From a virus, in IMG/VR virus record IMGVR_UViG_3300045988_147128, positions 1 through 64,000 of that record: a stretch of DNA of 64,000 nucleotides. One strand, written 5' to 3'. This document shows positions 2,192-64,000 of this stretch, in pieces. A model generated the notes under the pieces. That model did no database searches, had not been told where the DNA came from, and saw only the letters and a program-made list of their open reading frames with translations. The translations under genes were made by a program, and so were the position numbers. Every line of letters begins with the position of its first letter. Within the stretch, counting starts at the first letter, position 1.

Positions 2192-2446
2192 ATGACAGAG
2201 AATAGTATAGACGTAAATATCGTACCTGTAAAGAATGGTATGAAACGTGTTGTGGTATCATATTACCATTATTCACGCAAGGAGAAAGATCGCATGAGTT
2301 CTCAAACGGATTACGTGTGGGAAACAGGGAATGAAGAGATGTTTAAATACTTTGAGGCCAGGAGGATAAAAGTATTTTATAGTCAGATTCGTGCCATGTG
2401 TAGATTCTATGGCAAGAAAAATGTACGTAAATACAAAAAGCTATGA
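2192..2446 (+). CDS. hypothetical protein
   Basis: ORF track. Confidence 0.45.
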   Translation: MTENSIDVNIVPVKNGMKRVVVSYYHYSRKEKDRMSSQTDYVWETGNEEMFKYFEARRIKVFYSQIRAMCRFYGKKNVRKYKKL

Positions 2447-3252
2447 TATTAAAAACGACAACCAACGAGTTTTGTTTCATCAGCGTAAGTTTCTATGAAA
2501 CAATAGCGGATCCTCGTCATTTCTTTGAACAGGATTATGAAGAGATGCCAGAATACGAGGAAGAAGCAGATTTTGATTTTGATTCTTATTGCAATAAGTT
2601 TATTCCTTTTGTACAGGAATGGGCGAATAAGGTGGGCGAACGCCTTTACGGATATGGTGTGAATAACATAAAGGTAACATCGGTCGGACATCCGAGTGAA
2701 TATAATTATGATACTGATTGGATGAATGTGGAGGTAGAATTTTGTGATAGATGGAGGCAAAGGATGTTATTTAATATTGGTAAGATTGTCAATGATGATA
2801 AATGCAAGAAGTATGCGGAAGCCAATTATAGGTCAGTATTAGGATACATCTTTTTAGGACCTGAAGATTTAAAGGAATTTGAAAAGGAAATAATAGAAAA
2901 GAAGTCGGATTCGAAATATGATATAACAATATTATTAAATATGTATCTAACTTTGGCTTTTGTAAAAGAATTTGGATTTAAAGCCGGAGAAGCGTGGAGT
3001 GAAATAACAGAATATGCTTACGGATGTTTATCGTATTCCGATTTTGCAACAACAGAGATGCTTATACCGGAAGGTTCGGAGCATTTATTCAAAGACATTT
3101 ACACGGCAAAGGCCGACGAATTATATCATCATGTCCTGGATAAATTCGGATGGGCGTGGCGTGATCCGAAATATAAATCAGAAACAGAATTATGCTCGAT
3201 GTTAAAATGGGCAAAAGAAAAAGGCTTGACCATTGAAGAGTTAAGTATTTAA
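2443..3252 (+). CDS. hypothetical protein (269 aa)
   Basis: long ORF, start overlaps upstream stop (ATGA). Confidence 0.6.
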   Translation: MILKTTTNEFCFISVSFYETIADPRHFFEQDYEEMPEYEEEADFDFDSYCNKFIPFVQEWANKVGERLYGYGVNNIKVTSVGHPSEYNYDTDWMNVEVEFCDRWRQRMLFNIGKIVNDDKCKKYAEANYRSVLGYIFLGPEDLKEFEKEIIEKKSDSKYDITILLNMYLTLAFVKEFGFKAGEAWSEITEYAYGCLSYSDFATTEMLIPEGSEHLFKDIYTAKADELYHHVLDKFGWAWRDPKYKSETELCSMLKWAKEKGLTIEELSI

Positions 3253-3265
3253 TTGTTAAACATAA

Positions 3266-3297
3266 GGCAGTAGTGGTGCGTGAGTATAGGTGCTGCC
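3266..3297 (+). terminator. hairpin GGCAG/CTGCC, loop contains GCGTGAGTATAGG
   Basis: seen directly; conserved loop motif; overlaps GTG start of track ORF 3280. Confidence 0.5.
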
Positions 3298-3315
3298 GTT
3301 AAAATATTTTATAAG

Positions 3316-3564
3316 ATGAAAAAAGAAGAGATTCAAACTATTTTATACACAATCAAAGAAGGAGACAGTATTAAAATCAAAGTACAAGACAAAAGTGAAG
3401 AGATAAGATTGCGGGATCATGTAAGAAGAACGCAGAAATACGGATACAGGTTTTGTTTGTCTCATTTGCATGATGGAATTTTCTATTTGGAGAAGTTGGA
3501 AGAGGGAGATAAAGATAAATACTATAGAGTAATAAACAGAGGAAATGGAAAGACCGGAGTATAA
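3316..3564 (+). CDS. hypothetical protein
   Basis: ATG at 3316 downstream of hairpin. Confidence 0.5.
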   Translation: MKKEEIQTILYTIKEGDSIKIKVQDKSEEIRLRDHVRRTQKYGYRFCLSHLHDGIFYLEKLEEGDKDKYYRVINRGNGKTGV

Positions 3565-3838
3565 TAAGCTACGCAAAATGGCTAAGACTACTCCAGGTCT
3601 GATAGTGGACGAGGCGCAAAACATGATGCGTGTATCGCTGTATGATAATGGGGAACTTAAGAAGATCGTAGTAGTAATGAAATGCGATTCTTTTTTACAG
3701 TCAAAAAGTAACATAGAAAAGATAATGTTATTATCATCTTCTATAGAAGATAGAAAAAACAGAGAAAAAAATAAAACAAAATCAGAAAATGAACAGAATA
3801 ACAAAAATAAGAGAAGAAATAGGAGGAAAACAGGTTGA
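3545..3838 (+). CDS. hypothetical Lys/Asn-rich protein
   Basis: ORF track; overlaps neighbours, weak. Confidence 0.35.
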   Translation: MERPEYNKLRKMAKTTPGLIVDEAQNMMRVSLYDNGELKKIVVVMKCDSFLQSKSNIEKIMLLSSSIEDRKNREKNKTKSENEQNNKNKRRNRRKTG

Positions 3839-54730: not shown

Positions 54731-57585
54731 TATTTGGTCCTCCTTCTTCTTTTAGTTTCATCATCTTCTTCATTTAAACTTCTCAAGTAAGGTGTGGAAT
54801 AATCACCCATATTCATCACATCCTGATCACCTTGAACGTAAATAATTTGACCACTTGGAAGCATTCTCATATTCGGAGCTATGGAAGCTATGGTGTTCAA
54901 TGAAGTTCTAACATTAAACTTATTCTGTATCTCGCTGTTTATACTGTCATAATAACGAGCAAGATTTTCATCCCTTATAGCCATAGCCTTCAATAATCCG
55001 GATTCATAACGTTGCCTTTCCGCTATGTTCTTATCATCTGTTTGAACATAAGCCATTTCATTAAACCTATCAGCTTCGTTTATTTGCCTTGCGTTATTGA
55101 AATTTACTTCATTAACATACTTGGCTATATTGCTTCCAGCTATGGCGTTCATATTAGCCAGAATAGCAGCCCGCTGGGAGTCGGGCACGTCACCTACTGC
55201 GTCTAACTGAGCCGATGTCGCACGGTTGAGCTCGTTGATATACTGATCAGCAGATTGAAGAACCGGGTCTATTCTCGGAGCCTGATGTCTTTCCAGGCCT
55301 TCTATCTCCAAGCCAGTGTCAAGGGTTCTTAGCATTTCCGGGAAGATAGGACCGAACGCCGCCGGTCTGCCCTGTCCTTTAGGTCCGTTGTCTTCAACCA
55401 CCTCCTCTGTATCGGTGTCGGTTGCAGTCGCAGGCGTACTTGCTTTCGGTTTTACCTCTATCCTTCCAGGAGATCCAATCTTAGGCGGTGTAAGGTCTGG
55501 TGCTATGGGACCGGCCTCAATAGGCTTCATTTCTGGTTTAACAGACTCAAGAACGAAGTCTATTTCCGGCATTAACCCACTATCTCTTAAAGCAACAAAC
55601 TTATTATAATCGGAGCCCAGAATCTTCTTAGCGGCATCAGATTTATCACCAAATAAGTCAACATAATTCTTTATCCCTTTTTCGTTTAACAATCTTTTTT
55701 GCTCTGCCGAAACAACGTCCAATCCATAATAAGAACGGGTGGCTGTTGTCTGACCAAACTTATCATCTACGGCAAATGAATTATAAGCCTGATTACCTCC
55801 GTAGCTTCCGGCATCCTGGCCCCAGAATCCGTACTCATCTCTGAATTTCTTGGCTGCATCAGCATTCGTGATAGCACCTACATCAGCTAACGCCCACAAT
55901 GCATTTAATTGCCTGTTGTATCCTTTCTGGAAACCTTCTGTATCAAAATCACCATCCGTATTGTTCTTGTTAGCCCATCGGTTTATGTCGAGCAAATTAG
56001 ATACCGCCTTATCATTTACCCTGCCGTATCCTAAATTGCTTCTATGTTGGAGATTCTGGTTGGCATTGACACTGGAATCAGGATTAAGAATCTGCTCTCT
56101 GTCCGCAACATCTACTATAGACATATTAAGAGTACGTCCAAATAACTGATTGATAAGCTTATTGTAGCCGATAGCATTCTTTCTAAGTTCCTCCAGCTCC
56201 TTCTGAGTAGGTCCACCTTCAGCCATTTTCCTGGTTTGCTTAACATACTCGTCATATATCCAGTTCTTAGCATCTGATTCTGCAATATTAAAAGCCTTAG
56301 CTTGTTTCTTTACCTGATTCAGATCAACAACCCCGCCATCCCTGAAAAAAGCATCCATCTTCTCGTTACGCTTAGATTCTTCCTGTTTGCCATAAACGAT
56401 TTCAGCGAAAGAACGAAATTGTGCTTCAAGCTCGTCTATCTCTTTCTGGTTTTCATTGACGTACTTGGAAAGAATAGAAGCATTAAGATTAGATGTGTTT
56501 TTGTCTTTTACATCTTCATTTTTCTCTAATCTCTTATATACACGCTCCTGATCTTCGTACTTATCAGACAAACCAATCTTCTTCTTATATCGATCAAGGA
56601 GTGTAGCATACGTATCTTTTGACGTTGCCTTAATACCATAATTTTCTCTAACGTAAGAGGCAAACTCATCATCTATCTTACGATAATCGGAAACAATATA
56701 AGCCTCTGGCAAATCAACCGGAGTGCCACCATTTTCATGTCTGTTCCCTTTGGCTTCCATAGGCCCTACGGAGTCAGGAGTCAGCACGTACTCGCCTTTC
56801 TCTATCTCTACATTCGCAGCATCTTCCATAGACTTGGGAAGAGGATAAATATATTCGCCGGTCATATCAGACGTATCCATCTTCTGACCGTTACCTAAAT
56901 TCACGCCACCACCTTCACGTTCCCACTTGATGAATTGCTGACGACGCTCCTTGGCAAGTTTTTCCCTCGCTGCCTGCTCGTCTCTGCTGGCTGCATACGC
57001 AGCAGATGAAGCTCCCATGATATTACGGGTAAGACCTAATCCTAAACTAACACCAGACAAGGCAGCTTGAGCCACATTAGCACCGACCTTATTACCGGCT
57101 CTTATCCGGCCAAGACTTGTACCGAACATTTGAGCTCTGCCGGTTAGATCGGGTGAATAATATGGGGTAGTCATAGGATCAAGAGGATTACCATCTTGGG
57201 AACGTTTTTCTTTAGAGGAATCAGCATCAACACCACCTACATTCATTGTATTATCAACGACTGATTTCTCTACGTTTTTAACCATACCCCTATTATCAGC
57301 GAGATATCCTGCATATCCTGCATCATTGTTTTCAAAAAACGGATCGGATGTAGGCATACTACTAAATGGATTTATCTCCCCCTCCTCTGTTTCTAAAATC
57401 ACATCAGAAGGCATATATATATTCTGAATATCAGATTCACCCCATTTATTAACAGGCGTTCCATAATCAAGAATAGACTGAGTAGAGGATACATTAATAT
57501 CCTGTTTCTTATCCTGAACACTACCGCCAGGAGCGAATATCGGACGATTTTTTATGATTCGTAATTTCATACTATCTTTTTTCAC
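54730..57585 (-). CDS. large (951 aa) hypothetical virion/internal protein
   Basis: long ORF. Confidence 0.75.
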   Translation of the reverse strand: MKKDSMKLRIIKNRPIFAPGGSVQDKKQDINVSSTQSILDYGTPVNKWGESDIQNIYMPSDVILETEEGEINPFSSMPTSDPFFENNDAGYAGYLADNRGMVKNVEKSVVDNTMNVGGVDADSSKEKRSQDGNPLDPMTTPYYSPDLTGRAQMFGTSLGRIRAGNKVGANVAQAALSGVSLGLGLTRNIMGASSAAYAASRDEQAAREKLAKERRQQFIKWEREGGGVNLGNGQKMDTSDMTGEYIYPLPKSMEDAANVEIEKGEYVLTPDSVGPMEAKGNRHENGGTPVDLPEAYIVSDYRKIDDEFASYVRENYGIKATSKDTYATLLDRYKKKIGLSDKYEDQERVYKRLEKNEDVKDKNTSNLNASILSKYVNENQKEIDELEAQFRSFAEIVYGKQEESKRNEKMDAFFRDGGVVDLNQVKKQAKAFNIAESDAKNWIYDEYVKQTRKMAEGGPTQKELEELRKNAIGYNKLINQLFGRTLNMSIVDVADREQILNPDSSVNANQNLQHRSNLGYGRVNDKAVSNLLDINRWANKNNTDGDFDTEGFQKGYNRQLNALWALADVGAITNADAAKKFRDEYGFWGQDAGSYGGNQAYNSFAVDDKFGQTTATRSYYGLDVVSAEQKRLLNEKGIKNYVDLFGDKSDAAKKILGSDYNKFVALRDSGLMPEIDFVLESVKPEMKPIEAGPIAPDLTPPKIGSPGRIEVKPKASTPATATDTDTEEVVEDNGPKGQGRPAAFGPIFPEMLRTLDTGLEIEGLERHQAPRIDPVLQSADQYINELNRATSAQLDAVGDVPDSQRAAILANMNAIAGSNIAKYVNEVNFNNARQINEADRFNEMAYVQTDDKNIAERQRYESGLLKAMAIRDENLARYYDSINSEIQNKFNVRTSLNTIASIAPNMRMLPSGQIIYVQGDQDVMNMGDYSTPYLRSLNEEDDETKRRRRTK

Positions 57586-57638
57586 AAAGATAAGAGAAAC
57601 GAACGAGAAAATCCAACGTTATGGGATACGTTTAAAAA

Positions 57639-58754
57639 TCAATCATGTACGGCAGACAAACCGCCCGAATCAGGGTCGTACTTAAGACCGCATGCCCGGC
57701 GATAGTTCTTAAGCGCTCTCTTGTACAAAAACAGCACTGTCTTGGAAACTATTTTCTTCATAGATTTGGTTAAAACCTCTTCTGTTGAAACAGACATCAG
57801 ACAGCTATTCAAAAACGACCTGACATTGGAACCGAACAAGATCTTCACCATTTTTCTAAACGTTCTAAAAAGATATGATGCAGAAAGAGACTTTAACCCA
57901 TTGCGAACCAGTCTCTTATTCAAATACGAAACAGCCTTTTCAGATAGACAGAGCCTATTCTTTCCTTCGCTATCTACCTCTGATGAAAACCACGAATATA
58001 AAGTGGTAGGATGTTTCTTAAGGTGATTAATGAAGGAAGTCATTATCCCTTCTTTTAAAGCCCTTTTGTGGGCTACGCATGCAGCAATCTTCTCTTCTCT
58101 TTTTAAAGAGCTGTCAAGGCATCTAAACACCGTCCTATCGTCTCCGATGAAATACTGAGGACGTTCTTCCTTGAACTTAGCCCGATAAGCGGCATATCCT
58201 TCCTTACGAAGCATATCTATCTGAGACCGGATATAGAACCTTACACACTTTTCTTCAGCCTCTTGCACGCTTTTAAGATAAGGAACTGACTTTCTTCCAT
58301 ATCGAAGATAGTCATAAACCATAGCCTCTATGAAGTCATTGTATGGGAAGAATCTTCCAAAACCAAAGTTCCAAACTATGAAACATCGCACTCTATCTTT
58401 CCAATAATCAGATATGAGAAAATTGCTACAATATCTCAACTTCCTGTCTTTCTGATAAAAATGATGAGTATTCTTATCGTAAAACAGGTTAAAATATCTC
58501 AAATTTCCTAAACATTGACCAGCTGGGCGGCGTACCACATTGTACCCTAAATTACTGAAGCTATTGTAGATAACTTCTATCGGAGAGACTTGCTCTTTCT
58601 TAAAGAGTTCGTCGTGTAACTTGTGAGGATCTATTATTTCGATTAACTTTGTCTCCATAATTATGTTATTTAGTGCAAAGATATGATTTTTCATCATATG
58701 TTCAAATAAGAAAATGCACGGCCTTGTATCCAGTTTGAGAGAAATAGGATACAA
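57639..58754 (-). CDS. very basic 371-aa protein of unknown function
   Basis: long ORF; immediately downstream (minus sense) of the three conserved-loop hairpins. Confidence 0.65.
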   Translation of the reverse strand: MYPISLKLDTRPCIFLFEHMMKNHIFALNNIIMETKLIEIIDPHKLHDELFKKEQVSPIEVIYNSFSNLGYNVVRRPAGQCLGNLRYFNLFYDKNTHHFYQKDRKLRYCSNFLISDYWKDRVRCFIVWNFGFGRFFPYNDFIEAMVYDYLRYGRKSVPYLKSVQEAEEKCVRFYIRSQIDMLRKEGYAAYRAKFKEERPQYFIGDDRTVFRCLDSSLKREEKIAACVAHKRALKEGIMTSFINHLKKHPTTLYSWFSSEVDSEGKNRLCLSEKAVSYLNKRLVRNGLKSLSASYLFRTFRKMVKILFGSNVRSFLNSCLMSVSTEEVLTKSMKKIVSKTVLFLYKRALKNYRRACGLKYDPDSGGLSAVHD

Positions 58755-58979
58755 GGTTTTTTATTTTATGACGGTTTAGATAAGAGACAAAAGAACGGCT
58801 CGAAACGTAACCGACTGATCGTCAGTGGTGGGACAACAAATCTTGAATTAAAACTACGCCTATAAATAGTCTCCGTTTTCCTTAATATTAAGACCATTTT
58901 CAATGATCTTACTCATTATATTATTTATATTATTTTATATACTTTACCATTTATTCATATAATTGTTTGCAGTGAATGA

Positions 58980-59154
58980 ACTTAACGACCGAAGGGAGTT
59001 AAGTGAGTGAACGGATTGACAAATTACTTTTTCCGTCTATTGTATTGTTTGCCTAATTGTGTGAAAAGATTGAGTATCGTGACCGAAGGGAACGATGCGA
59101 AAGAACTTATAATATTTAAAAACGACTGAACCTATCGACTGAAGGGAGATAGGT
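58980..59154. repeat. three stem-loops with identical 11-nt loop GACYGAAGGGA and covarying 7-bp stems (58980-59004, 59074-59098, 59130-59154)
   Basis: stems ACTTAAC/GTTAAGT, GTATCGT/ACGATGC, ACCTATC/GATAGGT; loops GACCGAAGGGA, GACCGAAGGGA, GACTGAAGGGA. Confidence 0.75.
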
Positions 59155-59411
59155 GATGGAGTGACGTTAATAGTTATATTAGGTAGCCAGTGGAGAATTA
59201 GGCAGGGAGTAGGCGAGACGAGCGCCCATGCCCGTCAGGACAGTGAAAGTACGTAGGTCTGTTCCGTCCAACCAAGGCGATGATAGTTCCATCCTTCACG
59301 AAATCGCACAAAAAAGCCGGATTATCTTGATATCGTTCTTCAACCTTCGGTATCCGTATAACGAGTCTCAAATCCGGCTTCGCTTTATTAACGAGAAATA
59401 AAATAATTGTT

Positions 59412-61667
59412 CTAATTATCAGTGACGCCTTTAATGCGAAGCTGAATATTGGGAAGCACGGCATTAATCAAAGCCATTTTCTTATCCTCTTCGCTTTCTT
59501 TTTCATGCTGTCTATACATCATGCTGTAATCACTGTCATCACCATCCTTTTTCCCGTCTAACGTCAGTAAATGATTTACGATGTCTTTACCATACGTTTC
59601 AGTCCATGTACGGAATCTCTCTTCCTCGGACTGTCTCTCCTGGGACTGGGCTTCCGGGTTAGGGAGGGCGGCTGCCACTTCTACCTCTGGAATCGTTACC
59701 GATGCTGCTATTTCTCCATCATCTCCGAATCCCATTTGACCATACAAAGATACGGAATTTTCTTCAATTTCCAAACCAAGATTTTTAGCAACTTCCATAG
59801 CATAGTCATAACGGTCATCATTTCTTATAACACTCTTATGAGGACGTCCTGCTCCTTGGTTCCAAGCTACTACAGCATCCTTAAGGTTATCGGCGTTCAT
59901 AAAATCCTGCCGGCTGTAGTTGTAATACCCTGGTCCTTCTTTTCCTTTTCTTGTGTACAAGAAATTAGAATATCCGGTTTTCCCTTCGTATTCGTCAGCC
60001 AAGAACTCAAGTTGGTCTTTGAATGTGGGTGTAGAATGTCCTTTCTTTTTGGCGTGCTTGAATAGCTTATCCATGCGTTCGTTGTGCCATTGCTGTATGC
60101 CGTATGATGTTCTGTTGTCTCCGTATATGTCATCTTTAAGACCGGATTCAGCCATGAGGTTACCTATGATGGCGAGCGCCTGTATTTTAGACATGCCTCT
60201 TTTATCAGTAAAGTATTCATATGCTTCACGTTGTTTGCCAACTACGCCACCTTCTTCGTATTTCCTTACAAACCTTTTAGGTAAAGCCTTGTCATTATTT
60301 CGAAGCACACTACCTTTCTTAGGATCGTATTTGATACGTTCCCTTATTCTAAGAGGGACATCCCTTTCTGGTATGATGTCTTCTGCTATCTTCTTTCGGC
60401 TAAAATCATAATCATCCTTCACATCCAACATACCGGCATCCGGATCCCATCTTACACTGAAATTCTTCAACGCACCTAATCCTGAAGCTTCGTTTACTTT
60501 TTCAAAATTGTCACCATATACTTCTTCTCTGAACGGACTTACACCTTCATTTACTAAAATCCATTTTCCTGGATTTTTAAATATATTTTTATTTAGTTTA
60601 TTAAGGACCTTCTTATAATCTCTTATTTTTCGTTTACTTTTTTCATCAGCATCCTTATATGCTTTGTCAAGCATGTTGTTCATATACTCTTTATCTAATA
60701 AAGATTGTATCAAAATAGCTTGTTCTTGAGGCAATCCTACATACTGAGCATCATCATCATCGTCATCAAAACGATACTTGCTTGCCGGTAATCTACTTAT
60801 ATCTCCATCCGTGTAAGCCTTCCACATTTTCTCTTCAAAATCTGTGGCTGTATCTTCCCCTGATCTCTCCCTGTTAGGATCCAACATTCGTTTCACAGTA
60901 GGAATAAAATCGGCCATTAAACTAATAGGATCAGTGTCTAATATTGGATTAACGGATCCATACCACTTATTAGGATCAGCGTTATTAGCTATACCTACTG
61001 ATTTTACATCAGAATCAGATACCCTAACTTTCTTTCCATCATATCCTCTCCCTACATGCCCTGTATCGCCGTATTTGGCAGCCACATGACGAGCGTCTTC
61101 GTATCCTGGATCATCAGTACCTTCTTCTACAGATTTGCTTTCTACGGGCTTGTTTTCAACCAGAATATAGTTACTGTCGTCATCCACCGTCCAAGGCTGG
61201 TCTGTCGGTGTAGAGAACACCAGGCGCTCGAAGGCACGGCGCTTCTTCTGACCGCCCATCCCCTCGTCATTTTCATCGTGATTTATTTCTTTCACAGCCT
61301 TATCGTAGTCGCCTTCTTTAAGGTATTTAAAAAGCATCGGGCTTTTAGAATACTCCGGTCCTCCTGTATTGTAAAATAGACTAAACAAAGCATCTCGCTG
61401 ATTATTGTTTAGATTTTTAAAATTAGGAGTTCTTCGTATAAATTCTGGAACGAACGTATTAACAACTCCCTCAAATTCTTTATCAGCTTCTTCCTCTGTT
61501 ATACCATTCTTGTATTTTTTAAGAATATGAGGAAGATGAAACCCGTATCCGATTGTTATATTCCCTTTCTTGTCATCATATAATTCAGGTTCGAATTTCT
61601 CCCACGACTTCAAATATTTAAGAATATTTTCTGAAGGCATCCAATCCGACTTATTCTTCTTTTCCAT
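59412..61667 (-). CDS. virion-associated peptidoglycan hydrolase: N-terminal GH24 (T4-lysozyme-like) domain plus C-terminal second lytic-like domain
   Basis: WEKFEPELYDDKKGNITIGYGF matches GH24 catalytic region; AESG...YGIQQW block later; start at internal ATG. Confidence 0.75.
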   Translation of the reverse strand: MEKKNKSDWMPSENILKYLKSWEKFEPELYDDKKGNITIGYGFHLPHILKKYKNGITEEEADKEFEGVVNTFVPEFIRRTPNFKNLNNNQRDALFSLFYNTGGPEYSKSPMLFKYLKEGDYDKAVKEINHDENDEGMGGQKKRRAFERLVFSTPTDQPWTVDDDSNYILVENKPVESKSVEEGTDDPGYEDARHVAAKYGDTGHVGRGYDGKKVRVSDSDVKSVGIANNADPNKWYGSVNPILDTDPISLMADFIPTVKRMLDPNRERSGEDTATDFEEKMWKAYTDGDISRLPASKYRFDDDDDDAQYVGLPQEQAILIQSLLDKEYMNNMLDKAYKDADEKSKRKIRDYKKVLNKLNKNIFKNPGKWILVNEGVSPFREEVYGDNFEKVNEASGLGALKNFSVRWDPDAGMLDVKDDYDFSRKKIAEDIIPERDVPLRIRERIKYDPKKGSVLRNNDKALPKRFVRKYEEGGVVGKQREAYEYFTDKRGMSKIQALAIIGNLMAESGLKDDIYGDNRTSYGIQQWHNERMDKLFKHAKKKGHSTPTFKDQLEFLADEYEGKTGYSNFLYTRKGKEGPGYYNYSRQDFMNADNLKDAVVAWNQGAGRPHKSVIRNDDRYDYAMEVAKNLGLEIEENSVSLYGQMGFGDDGEIAASVTIPEVEVAAALPNPEAQSQERQSEEERFRTWTETYGKDIVNHLLTLDGKKDGDDSDYSMMYRQHEKESEEDKKMALINAVLPNIQLRIKGVTDN

Positions 61668-62136
61668 CTTTCTCTTCCTCCTTCTTGAATTTATGGTAAG
61701 CATCACAAACTCTGTCAACCAACCATCCCATCAGGTAGGCGGCATGCTCATCTTCTCCGGCTTCAAAACTGTAGTTAATATTAAGATACTTACAGTACAA
61801 AGAAAGACCGTGCAGACATTCGTGCCCTATGGTTTTAACATCCATGTCAGATAACGAATGGAATAAGAAACATATTTCTTTTTTATGATTGGTTCTGTTT
61901 CCTACAAAAATAGTTCTACCACCATAATCATCAGTCCACCCCTCCCAGCTCTGATCTTCTACTTCCAGGTTGGCAAACGTCTTAACTATGTATTCCTCAT
62001 CTGCTCCAAGCAATACCCTTATGTTGTATGGGTATATATCATTTTTATACGATACCTGTCTCATAATAATCTGTTTTCCAACAAAGATAAACAAAAAGCC
62101 GAAGATATGCTCACGCACTTCCTCGGCTATACCCAT
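61651..62136 (-). CDS. small HExxH zinc metallopeptidase-like protein
   Basis: IGHECLHG (HExxH) + downstream EDEH. Confidence 0.5.
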   Translation of the reverse strand: MGIAEEVREHIFGFLFIFVGKQIIMRQVSYKNDIYPYNIRVLLGADEEYIVKTFANLEVEDQSWEGWTDDYGGRTIFVGNRTNHKKEICFLFHSLSDMDVKTIGHECLHGLSLYCKYLNINYSFEAGEDEHAAYLMGWLVDRVCDAYHKFKKEEEKDGKEE

Positions 62137-62182
62137 TAAAACTTTTTATTATGAAAAGCTACAATTAAAATAGAAATAATAA

Positions 62183-63817
62183 TCAAATTTTTATCTTCTT
62201 AATTTTCTCAACCATATTCTTATATCCACAAAACTTGCTACTAATAACATCAAAGATAGATTCTGACCAACCGGCAAGGTTAAGAATATTGGACCCTTTG
62301 TAAAACATCTCACTTCCATATCCTTGAATAGAAAGAGAAACGATCTTACAATCCGGGTTCACTTTCTTAAACTCCTTCAGAAGTTCAGCAAACTTACCAC
62401 TTGTATAATGAGAGGTTCTCTCCCATACAACAGATTTACCATCTCCTACCTGCATATCTGAAATAACGTACAAGTTATCTACCTTGATCTTATCTTTAAC
62501 GCACTTATCCAAGAATATAAAAAGACCATCTTCGGTAGCACCACCGCATTTTTCGCCGGCAGCAAAAGACGCTTTGTTATTCCATAAGACCCCTTTACTT
62601 CTATCATATTCGTAATTGATAAGTTTGTCACCAAACATACCGATAAATACGTCAGGGAGCACGGAAGCAATCATGCAACCAAATAAGTTACCGATGATAG
62701 CCGTACTTGTTTTGCTGAAGGCAGATACCGTTGATGATCCTCCTCCGTCTCCACGTACAGAGCCAGAGTGGTCAATCAGGATAGCCGACCGCCCCTCCAA
62801 CACCGGCAGGTTCTTGCAGGATATGGTAATCGCCTGCTCCAGCGCATCCAGGATCTTATTTTTCTTGTATGCTGTAAGTCCAGCACGTTTCTTATCAGAT
62901 TCAAACATAATATCAGAACCAGGTTTCTTTACGCCAATAGCCTCAACCTCCTTATAAGCAGAAGCGAAACGGAAAGGAAGCATCTTAGAATTAAGAACCT
63001 TCTCTTCTGTCGTAAGCTGCTTACATACCTCATTAATCTGATCGGGAGCGTATTCGATTATGTTTCTAAGGTTACGGACCATATTGAAAATAGGCATACC
63101 CTTTACGTTAGAAACCACGTCCCTAATAGCATCACCGAGCGCTTCCTTCTTTTCTTTATTGTCTTTCTTATCCTGACCGGCTTTAGACATCTCCTTTTCA
63201 AGAATCTTACTTTCGTACAGCCCGGACAAAGACCGTCCTTCCATAAGATACTGGAAAGCTGTTTTATTAGCCTGATTGCCTTTAGGGTGGAATAAATTAA
63301 CAAGGTCGATCATCGTAATAACCCTGCTATTCATCTTGTACTTATCAATCCGATAAGGATCAAGACCCTCCAGGGCTATTTTAAATCCTTTCTTGATAGC
63401 ACTGGATATACCTCTTAACTTCTTCGGATCTTTGCCGTTAAGAGCTGCATAGCAACCAAGAATCTCACTCATGTCATCAGGACGCATAACGATCTTATTA
63501 TAGAACCTGGACGCCCATTCTTTACCAGATACCTTGCCAGCCAATACAGAAGCCATAAGATGTGTGACGGACCGTAGCTTGCCTTCCTTCCGGACGTACA
63601 ATGCCGTCTGCGCTGCGAAGTACGGATCGACCTGATCCATGAGGTTCTTAATCCGATTTACCTTGTCTTCTTCCTTCTCGTAATAAGAATCAGATAACAT
63701 GGTTGTCATCACCGTAGAAACCAGCTCCTCCTCTACACCAGGCTTATACGCAGCCTCTCCCATGTGGTTGGTGATTGTAGGCTTAACACCTTCATTTTTC
63801 TTGTTAAACTTGCCCAT
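62183..63817 (-). CDS. rsr: Ro60/Rsr orthologue (TROVE domain + vWA domain with MIDAS DxSxS)
   Basis: SDSYYEKEEDKV ~ Ro60 GGTYYIKEQKL; DPYFAAQTALY ~ EPMLFALAIC; ILIDHSGSV = MIDAS; ~540 aa as in bacterial Rsr. Confidence 0.75.
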   Translation of the reverse strand: MGKFNKKNEGVKPTITNHMGEAAYKPGVEEELVSTVMTTMLSDSYYEKEEDKVNRIKNLMDQVDPYFAAQTALYVRKEGKLRSVTHLMASVLAGKVSGKEWASRFYNKIVMRPDDMSEILGCYAALNGKDPKKLRGISSAIKKGFKIALEGLDPYRIDKYKMNSRVITMIDLVNLFHPKGNQANKTAFQYLMEGRSLSGLYESKILEKEMSKAGQDKKDNKEKKEALGDAIRDVVSNVKGMPIFNMVRNLRNIIEYAPDQINEVCKQLTTEEKVLNSKMLPFRFASAYKEVEAIGVKKPGSDIMFESDKKRAGLTAYKKNKILDALEQAITISCKNLPVLEGRSAILIDHSGSVRGDGGGSSTVSAFSKTSTAIIGNLFGCMIASVLPDVFIGMFGDKLINYEYDRSKGVLWNNKASFAAGEKCGGATEDGLFIFLDKCVKDKIKVDNLYVISDMQVGDGKSVVWERTSHYTSGKFAELLKEFKKVNPDCKIVSLSIQGYGSEMFYKGSNILNLAGWSESIFDVISSKFCGYKNMVEKIKKIKI

Positions 63818-63840
63818 TGTTGTTTTCTTTAAATGTTATA

Positions 63841-63874
63841 CAAAAAAAAAGCGACAGTATAAATACCGCCGCTT
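63841..63874 (-). terminator. hairpin AAGCG/CGCTT followed by T9 on minus strand, between tRNA-Lys and rsr
   Basis: seen directly. Confidence 0.5.
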
Positions 63875-63932
63875 GAAAAATCAAAAAAAATCTATAGAAT
63901 CAATGAGGGAAAATCGAAGTTGGGTTAAGATA

Positions 63933-64000
63933 ACGAAAATAATGGACTTGAACCATTGCTGATACTTTAAAAGAGTATTGCTCTACCATCTGAGCTAAAA
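63933..64000 (-). tRNA. tRNA-Lys (anticodon UUU), 5' end truncated by window edge
   Basis: D-arm GCTC-AGATGGTA-GAGC, anticodon arm ATACT-CTTTTAA-AGTAT, T-arm AATGG-TTCAAGT-CCATT on minus strand; acceptor pairing could not be confirmed. Confidence 0.7.

Follow-up and report, generated by a model that had tools for sequence, protein, structure and literature searches.

The question raised by this locus is what folds, and for which reader, in a noncoding stretch where three hairpins carry almost the same apex on different stems. The locus lies in a window of 64,000 nt (positions 1 to 64,000 of the IMG/VR virus record IMGVR_UViG_3300045988_147128), between a lysozyme gene and the gene of a basic 339-aa protein. 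The window belongs to an Epsilon crAss-like phage, and over the hairpin region it is 95% identical to crAssE-Sib (OR575929.1), a 151-kb Epsilon crAss-like phage of the human gut. Crassvirales are among the most abundant human gut viruses and their regulation is poorly known. The hairpins are maintained by selection as a strand-specific single-stranded structure, RNA or single-stranded DNA (ssDNA). The reading put forward here, which has an even chance of being right, is that they are modules of an uncatalogued structured noncoding RNA (ncRNA) with the apexes as protein-docking sites.

The first-pass annotation had reported three hairpins with a near-identical 11-mer and pairing 7-nt arms, and reading of the sequence together with a pattern search recovered all of them on the + strand. 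The 11-mer is GACCGAAGGGA at 58987-58997 and 59081-59091 and GACTGAAGGGA at 59137-59147; the arms are ACTTAAC/GTTAAGT, GTATCGT/ACGATGC (with one U.G wobble) and ACCTATC/GATAGGT. Hairpin 1 occupies 58972-59012 in the minimum free energy (MFE) fold, with its core at 58980-59004, and is matched by a covariance model at 58977-59007 (48.4 bits, E 1.9e-11). Hairpin 2 lies at 59070-59102 (core 59074-59098; model match 59071-59101, 42.5 bits) and hairpin 3 at 59127-59157 (core 59130-59154; model match 59127-59157, 43.4 bits), the units being spaced 56-94 nt apart. No further copy of the 11-mer was identified in the window, either by pattern search with one mismatch allowed or by the covariance model, as the annotation had also claimed. 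The bare 11-mer is unremarkable (15 of 100 shuffles yield at least three matches at no more than one mismatch); clustering, complementary arms and conservation, taken together, lie far beyond chance. None of the three hairpins is followed by a T-run, and a reading as intrinsic terminators was dropped.

The sequence GACYGAAGGGA is organised as [GA]-CY-GAA-GG-[GA]: a G-N-A triloop, two closing pairs and GA dinucleotides on both sides. The bracketing GA...GA dinucleotides are placed for tandem G.A pairs and the true loop is G-N-A; RNAfold predicts the inner CC/GG-type pairs. The stems run outward past the 7-bp arms through more tandem G.A pairs. Thus hairpin 1 is the rod GU-[GA]-AU-[GA]-ACUUAAC-[GA]-CC-GAA-GG-[GA]-GUUAAGU-[GA]-GU-[GA]-AC, hairpin 2 reads UU-[GA]-GUAUCGU-[GA]-CC-GAA-GG-[GA]-ACGAUGC-[GA]-AA, and hairpin 3 reads ACCUAUC-[GA]-CU-GAA-GG-[GA]-GAUAGGU.

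Relatives carry the same design. A pattern scan of viral contigs gave about 88 orthologous loci, 93-99% identical to the window, and diverged versions of the module (the noncoding region with its gene) were reached via homologues of the adjacent protein. Type A' has 83% protein identity and the same genomic context; type B has about 60% and a different context, with a DUF6808-like gene on one side and a structural gene of 292 aa on the other; L170 has about 40%. Hairpins of this design occur in all three, on the opposite strand from the gene. Across 22 distinct units taken from three diverged types of module, 91.9% of cells are paired, versus 31-40% with slid partners, and both sides change in 8 of 9 pairs; the covariation score is 0.753 against 0.288 in shuffles, and none of 500 shuffles reached the observed value. 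Helices were also followed in 82 distinct module sequences, where pairing in the outer extension of hairpin 1 is complete (100%, with AU<->CG and UG/UA/GC covariation) and the helix of hairpin 2 is 96% paired, both sides changing in 5 pairs. Apex conservation and stem covariation in relatives, which the annotation had proposed to look for with a covariance model, were therefore both found.

These comparisons correct one point of the earlier description, in which the 11 nt were an open loop: they are a paired mini-hairpin flanked by tandem G.A pairs, because the inner pairs covary and can be lost together. The inner pairs are GC/GC in hairpin 3 of type B (the canonical GCGAAGC) and AC/GU in hairpin 1 of type A', and the inner U.G of hairpin 3 becomes U-A in 18 population variants. 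A coordinated 2-nt deletion takes out exactly one inner pair. Population variants of hairpin 3 include GACTGAAAGGA and GAC--GAAGGA. Triloops across the versions are GAA, GUA and GGA, and hairpin 2 tolerates GAA to AAA in the population; L170 has a 1-bp inner stem and a GUGA tetraloop in place of the GNA triloop and 2 bp. In diverged arms another tandem G.A substitutes for two Watson-Crick pairs.

The strand is equally clear. Stem changes in the population are only those giving G.U on the + strand, and the asymmetric features (wobble pairs, tandem G.A pairs, G-N-A/G-N-N-A caps and G-richness) all favour this strand. The segment 58960-59170 folds at -51 kcal/mol on the + strand and -26 on the complement, about twice as stable, and single hairpins fold at -11 to -13 versus -5 to -7 kcal/mol. 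For the paralogous module the values are -104 kcal/mol (z -1.5) in the + orientation and -67 (z +1.2) on the opposite strand. Every gene flanking the hairpin region is on the minus strand, the + strand being the template strand of these genes; within the module the hairpin strand is G-rich, like the coding sense strands of this genome. Of the roles proposed at first pass, a structured RNA or ssDNA motif is borne out by strand specificity and compensatory stems. A leader, operator or antitermination hairpin in the mRNA of the gene is unlikely because the structure is on the strand opposite to it, and a packaging signal was set aside, with no packaging context evident.

The hairpins are restricted to the module. 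The covariance model of the hairpin unit was searched against 257 kb (the window, most of the crAssE-Sib genome and relatives) and matched only in module regions; the motif is absent from the replication and early regions of crAssE-Sib. With Rfam 15, the segment 58700-59460 gave only noise at E<=10 (no more than 17 bits), and the B-type module and the L062 region gave nothing or a 14-bit match to RF01691. This last family, a Bacillus-plasmid RNA, was considered and rejected: the hairpin of one relative scores 14 bits (E 6.5) against a gathering threshold of 31 bits, and hosts and context differ. RF01691 is a hairpin family that is itself ambiguous between RNA and ssDNA. A search of the crAss literature found no earlier description of the element, and it is well supported as a new structured element that matches nothing in Rfam or in the crAss literature searched.

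The gene co-inherited with the hairpins is located at 57639-58658 (- strand) and encodes a basic protein (pI 9.6; 61 K+R versus 36 D+E). The same kind of hairpins lies upstream of its homologues, whose identity is 83%, about 60% or about 40% and which include a paralogue in another context. The open reading frame (ORF) had been read as 371 aa from a TTG at 58754, which overstated it. Its start is most likely the ATG at 58658 (339 aa), because the 5' extension is hypervariable with indels, the coding sequence of a relative is 1020 nt, homologue alignments begin there and a Bacteroidetes-type -7 box (TATCTTTG, 58683-58676) precedes it; within the region, polymorphism and indels peak at 58625-58705. 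The protein is mostly helical and its family comprises just 23 clusters among 1.8 billion representatives. It has no sequence match in Pfam, PHROG or PDB, its family has no invariant acidic or His residues, and there is no significant structural neighbour, the best Foldseek match (first model) being the XerA recombinase with E 0.17. The annotation had named this protein as the obvious binder of the hairpins, and it is a reasonable candidate because hairpins and gene are inherited together.

Two distant occurrences qualify that candidacy and the orientation of the element. L062 is an unrelated 140-kb viral contig with a noncoding stretch of about 900 nt at 2390-3300 (-), opposite to the flanking genes, comprising many GCGAAGC units, one GA-AC-GAA-GU-GA unit and three CUCUUGC-G(UA/AC/CA)A-GCAAGAG hairpins. 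No homologue of the 339-aa protein was identified near these hairpins, and the protein is weakened as the only possible reader, since the hairpin style occurs there without it. L167 (P0030) is the most distant protein lineage, with about 20% identity and an upstream region of 1.1 kb. That region, at 3078-3100 (+) and 3480-3580 (+), includes a G4-prone tract, GGGGAGGGGAAAGGGGAGAGGG, as well as two GA-studded hairpins on the gene-sense strand and thus in the opposite orientation to the window: GC-GA-GC-GACA-GC-GA-GC and AUU-GA-GC-GA-AC-UGU-GU-GA-GC-GA-AAU.

In every module lineage the hairpins belong to a larger conserved noncoding region, about 650-750 nt long. Its order in the + orientation is a terminator-like hairpin, a conserved block, an AT-rich spacer, the three hairpins and a G-rich domain. 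The conserved block (58815-58854, +) has the invariant columns CUGAnCnUCAG-(U)GGUGG..CAA..AUCU in a five-lineage alignment, and the AT-rich spacer (about 90 nt, 58885-58971), a block kept in relatives, lies to the left of the hairpins. The G-rich domain (59183-59300, +) contains GUAGCCAGUGGA..GGCAGG..GUAGGCGAG..CAGGACAG and is conserved in A, A', B and L170. Within it, a hairpin at 59217-59236 covaries, with double-sided changes in three pairs, and a second hairpin is formed by GGACAG/CUGUUC. The linker UUGCCUAAUU (59049-59058, +) is a candidate long-range partner around hairpins 2 and 3. Its pairing through 59049-59055 with UAGGCGA at 59210-59216 (LR1) is 97.7% paired in the 82 sequences, with one-sided C/U changes only; its pairing through 59050-59058 with AAUUAGGCA at 59196-59204 (LR2) is 84.7% paired, shows one double-sided change and is present in the MFE fold. 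The data are suggestive of LR1 and LR2 as mutually alternative long-range helices that would enclose hairpins 2 and 3. The annotation had noted that the motif might prove to be part of a coding region in relatives; it is noncoding there, and a coding reading is refuted by population indels of 2 nt and other sizes, by the three covarying hairpins and by small ORFs without family matches.

How far this points to RNA can now be weighed; the chance that the folded molecule is RNA is put at even or slightly better. An ncRNA of about 300-420 nt would start near 58970 on the + strand, take in the G-rich domain and end at about 59300-59390, in antisense orientation to the late genes on either side. 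Its hairpins would be rigid rods, short helices separated by tandem sheared G.A pairs, and every rod would bear the common cap [GA]-SS-GNA-SS-[GA]. This invariant apex, repeated over variable covarying stems, would offer a multivalent docking site for a protein, of which the likeliest would be the neighbouring basic protein, duplicated, lost and diverging together with the hairpins. RNA and protein would then form a phage ribonucleoprotein (RNP) or an autoregulatory unit. RNA is favoured by G.U pairs fixed in covarying helices, with tandem U.G/G.U in the B-type 59217-59236 hairpin; by the exchange of triloop and 2 bp for a GUGA tetraloop and 1 bp in L170; by conservation of the entire region as noncoding, with indels tolerated; by the candidate helix LR1, which spans 150-160 nt and has three G.U pairs in type B; and by linkage to protein homologues in four lineages plus a paralogous copy in the same genomes. 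The variation in copy number of hairpins and G-rich unit by tandem duplication fits a multivalent platform. As the L167 element is on the gene-sense strand, orientation is not fixed, and an independent RNA gene fits better than a promoter of the gene. Abundant long intergenic ncRNAs of unknown function in the crAss-like phage phi14:2 (10.1101/2020.03.07.982082) are a precedent.

Several points weigh against the ncRNA. Transcription of the module on the + strand is putative: no convincing host-type promoter (TAnnTTTG) was identified upstream of hairpin 1 and no clear + strand terminator after the G-rich domain, and an RNA antisense to a long one-directional block of late genes is awkward. Every apex fits the consensus of the extraordinarily stable DNA mini-hairpins (SS-GNA-SS, GCGNAGC, GCGNNAGC), GNA triloops are not favoured as RNA loops, and the GACA loops in L167 and L062 fit GNNA, not GNRA. 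The long-range helices are without convincing double-sided covariation, no recognisable RNA-binding fold was found in the 339-aa protein, and L062, as said, has the hairpins without a homologue of it.

The apexes are what brings ssDNA into the argument, and initiation signals on ssDNA, taken as a whole (promoters together with priming sites or origins), are possible at a probability well short of even. The first form, in itself unlikely, is that of N4-like template-strand hairpin promoters for the phage virion RNA polymerase (RNAP). The + strand, unwound or supercoiled, would extrude mini-hairpins resistant to single-stranded DNA-binding protein that mark start sites, with transcription running leftward into the 339-aa gene and on into the large virion-protein genes that follow. 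The GNA-capped hairpins would serve a two-barrel, QDE-1-like, ssDNA-dependent RNAP, a minority view under which the product would be either the mRNA of the basic protein or a structured RNA. For the virion RNAP of phi14:2, ssDNA or denatured DNA is an efficient template and double-stranded DNA a very poor one, and promoter motifs of this enzyme are not known; crAssE-Sib has a related virion RNAP (PMC11054128). The need of the crAss-like enzyme for a single-stranded template thus agrees with such promoters, as do the apexes (CCGAAGG, CUGAAGG, CCGGAGG, CCGUAGG, ACGUAGU and GCGAAGC, on variable covarying stems) and the number of three hairpins to a module, carried by the template strand of the neighbouring genes (A, A', B, L170, L062).

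The 5' flank of the hairpins bears on the same reading in both directions. A TATAAT/CCTAAT/TATAAT-like box precedes each hairpin at a fixed distance, included in a 49-nt degenerate direct repeat (family D1: 58958-59006, 59052-59100 and 59108-59156), and there is a sigma70-like match, TTTATA-18-TATAAT, at 58934-58963. Conservation of this flank at a fixed distance from each hairpin would suit a promoter; however, it is base-paired and covarying, not a conserved single-stranded initiation region. The rods of 13-16 pairs are much longer than N4 hairpins and include 2-4 tandem G.A mismatches (pyrimidine mismatches on the other strand) and fixed G.T pairs, and long mismatch-bearing rods make cruciform extrusion from duplex DNA costly. 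Moreover, the motif is confined to this module in the late/structural block, away from replication and early genes; a host-type -7 box is already in place for the gene; such promoters account for neither the conserved G-rich domain nor the possible long-range pairing; L167 has the opposite orientation relative to the gene; and one module copy is dispensable (the empty crAssE-Sib site). A DxDxD motif search and a PDB sequence search of the giant ORFs beside the module did not locate the virion RNAP gene.

The second ssDNA form, more doubtful than promoters, is a set of single-strand initiation (ssi) signals, or else an origin module. The hairpins would be sites of priming on ssDNA as are RSF1010 ssiA/ssiB or the three hairpins of the G4 complementary-strand origin, next to an AT-rich unwinding element and G-rich iteron-like repeats, and the 339-aa protein would be the cognate origin binder. 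It is prompted by the apex CCGAAGG, which is the mini-hairpin of RSF1010 ssiA, by the AT-rich stretch of about 90 nt adjoining the hairpins, by the repeated motifs TAGGC(A/G) and GGCAGG and by the tandem expansion of the 89-nt unit. A cassette of protein and cognate site that duplicates and diverges together is also typical of a replicon module. Nevertheless, the module is part of the structural block, a long way from the genes for primase, helicase and other replication functions, and not at a GC-skew switch (GC skew tracks gene orientation only, with no origin-like switch at the module). The protein is without conserved acidic or His residues, so it is no primase, and an initiator-like fold is likewise absent. 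The hairpins all share one strand, G.T-rich helices and long rods count against this form as they do against N4-like promoters, and, again, one module copy is dispensable.

Dispensability is seen at the B-type site. Types A/A' and B co-occur within single phage contigs, and the B-type module, of about 1.9 kb, comprises the noncoding region and the gene of a 348-356-aa paralogue. The site is empty in crAssE-Sib (OR575929.1 41184-41720, L165 3185-3721, versus L122 5206-7109), where comparison shows that the B module takes the place of about 100 nt, among them the final 20 or so codons of the DUF6808-like gene upstream; neither a target duplication nor terminal repeats were identified in this comparison. 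The A-type copy is syntenic across lineages and always precedes the genes of about 950 and 1020 aa. In L159 (8553-8833) the 89-nt G-rich unit forms a tandem array of 3.2 copies, hairpin 1 is duplicated in L137 and L162 to give four hairpins, and L157 has a 22-nt duplication within hairpin 2. The B-type module of L152 (14156-14524) carries an A'-type version of the 59217-59236 hairpin (GGCCGTCGTGTGTTGTGAGGC; alignment columns 339-359), which suggests gene conversion between paralogous modules inside a genome.

It would be conceivable, at a very low probability, that the noncoding region and the 339-aa gene are a small mobile cassette and the hairpins a DNA recombination or mobility site, which a recombinase or transposase would read on one strand, as with attC or the ends of IS200/IS605. 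The presence of the 1.9-kb B module in some genomes and its absence from the same site in crAssE-Sib agree with this, together with the gene-conversion-like exchange in L152 and the non-significant XerA match of the protein. On the other side, the hairpins are about 450 nt inside the module and not at its ends, neither terminal inverted repeats nor target-site duplications are present, the protein has neither conserved catalytic residues nor significant recombinase similarity, and the A-type copy keeps its synteny. Genes of the TnpB/IS605 OrfB family are scattered in these genomes (L122 30-1169, -; OR575929.1 58986-60125 and 64190-65413), the one in L122 about 4 kb from the B-type module and with no evident link to the hairpins. 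An inverton was rejected as well, there being no flanking inverted repeat beyond AT-rich matches of 10-12 nt; all 76 distinct sequences spanning 58355-59811 are colinear with their flanks.

The remaining elements of the module lie at its edges. The terminator-like hairpin CCUUGUAUCC...GGAUACAAGG followed by UUUUUUAUUUUAU (58722-58769, +; inverted repeat I1 in the sequence) points away from the 339-aa gene and adjoins its promoter; equivalent T-run hairpins, likewise pointing away from the gene, were identified in L120, L122-126, L167, L170 and L171. A perfect Bacteroidetes-type -7 box, TAACTTTG (58644-58651, +), lies antisense over codons 2-5 of the gene, and 58644-58769 may encode a cis-antisense RNA of about 110 nt, a putative transcript running from this box to the T-run hairpin. 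Antisense -7 boxes were also observed in L170 (TACTTTTG) and L123 (TATATTTG). The right-hand boundary of the module is the terminator of the upstream lysozyme gene (59314-59380, -; inverted repeat I5), with the stem AAGCCGGAUU/AAUCCGGCUU followed by UUUUUGU.

The flanking genes, all on the minus strand, begin with a TROVE/Ro60-like RNA-binding protein of 544 aa (62183-63817; Pfam TROVE, PHROG 850), followed by a 161-aa ORF and by the two-domain lysozyme gene (59412-61718; Pfam Phage_lysozyme and Phage_lysozyme2). After these come the noncoding stretch, the basic ORF and virion-protein genes of 951, 1021 and 2214 aa. A tRNA at 63940-63998 (-) is the only Rfam match in the whole window at the gathering threshold; ARAGORN identified no tRNA or tmRNA within 57000-64000, and in crAssE-Sib tRNA-Lys and tRNA-Tyr adjoin the TROVE gene. 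The TROVE protein is encoded 3 kb from the hairpin module. A Y RNA was considered in view of this protein and rejected, as no match to Y RNA or YrlA was identified in the window at gathering threshold or in 61500-64000 at E<=5. A gapped G-rich pattern scan of genome contigs gave chance matches in unrelated bacteria and no host information.

The element is compact, covarying and strand-specific, with a candidate partner and natural variation in copy number and in presence or absence, and it would give a handle on either a new phage RNP or hairpin-directed initiation on ssDNA. If the hairpins were start signals of the virion RNAP, they would address the open promoter question of these phages and be convergent with the unrelated, T7-like virion RNAP of N4. 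A GA-stacked, GNA/GNNA-capped hairpin is also an example where sequence alone cannot separate RNA from ssDNA function.

Among known RNA systems, kink-turns and box C/D motifs were discarded, as the tandem GA/GA are symmetric 2x2 internal loops without a 3-nt bulge; a single bulged U occurs in the hairpins of some relatives. ToxI-like repeats of type III toxin-antitoxin systems were discarded too, since the stems differ, the units are 56-94 nt apart and the strand is opposite to the gene. The element resembles the CsrB/RsmZ sponges and lambda boxB in one motif repeated on differing hairpins, variable copy number and a plausible dedicated binder. A sponge of CsrB/RsmZ type presents unpaired ANGGA in loops, and was rejected because the G residues of AAGGGA pair with CC/CU, covary and are co-deleted; here the GG is base-paired and not loop-presented, the copies number just 3-4, the neighbouring genes run antisense to the element and a CsrA-type partner was not identified. 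Unlike lambda boxB, it is not positioned in an mRNA as a nut site is. The phi14:2 ncRNAs share with it a long noncoding intergenic region in a crAss-like phage, and in phi14:2 such regions are highly transcribed; those ncRNAs belong to the early region and run codirectionally with the early genes.

Among DNA signals, RSF1010 ssiA has the apex CCGAAGG, and GCGNNAGC mini-hairpins occur at the priming sites of G4, St-1 and alpha3 (PMC13037366). The ssiA apex heptamer is identical, GNA/GNNA caps are shared, and an intergenic hairpin cluster likewise lies beside AT-rich DNA. In contrast to ssiA/ssiB, the module has no dedicated primase, RepB'-like or other, linked to it; its hairpins are on one strand only and outside the replication module, and tandem G.A and wobble pairs are not features of ssi or G4 signals. 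The N4 promoters comprise three template-strand hairpins with a conserved GC-rich heptamer, a GNA loop with sheared G:A and variable stems (PMC4496689), the heptamer being GCGGAGC with GGA/GAA loops (PMC13037366). An N4 stem of 5-7 bp directly closes the triloop, whereas here 2 bp and tandem G.A separate the apex from the 7-bp stem; the rods are 40-48 nt, 2-3 times longer, with G.U/G.T pairs, they sit within the late block instead of at a genome end, and the crAss RNAP is unrelated to the T7-like N4 enzyme. Common to both are the three copies, the SS-GNA-SS heptamer, variable stems that only have to pair, the template strand and a phage with a virion RNAP dependent on single-stranded template.

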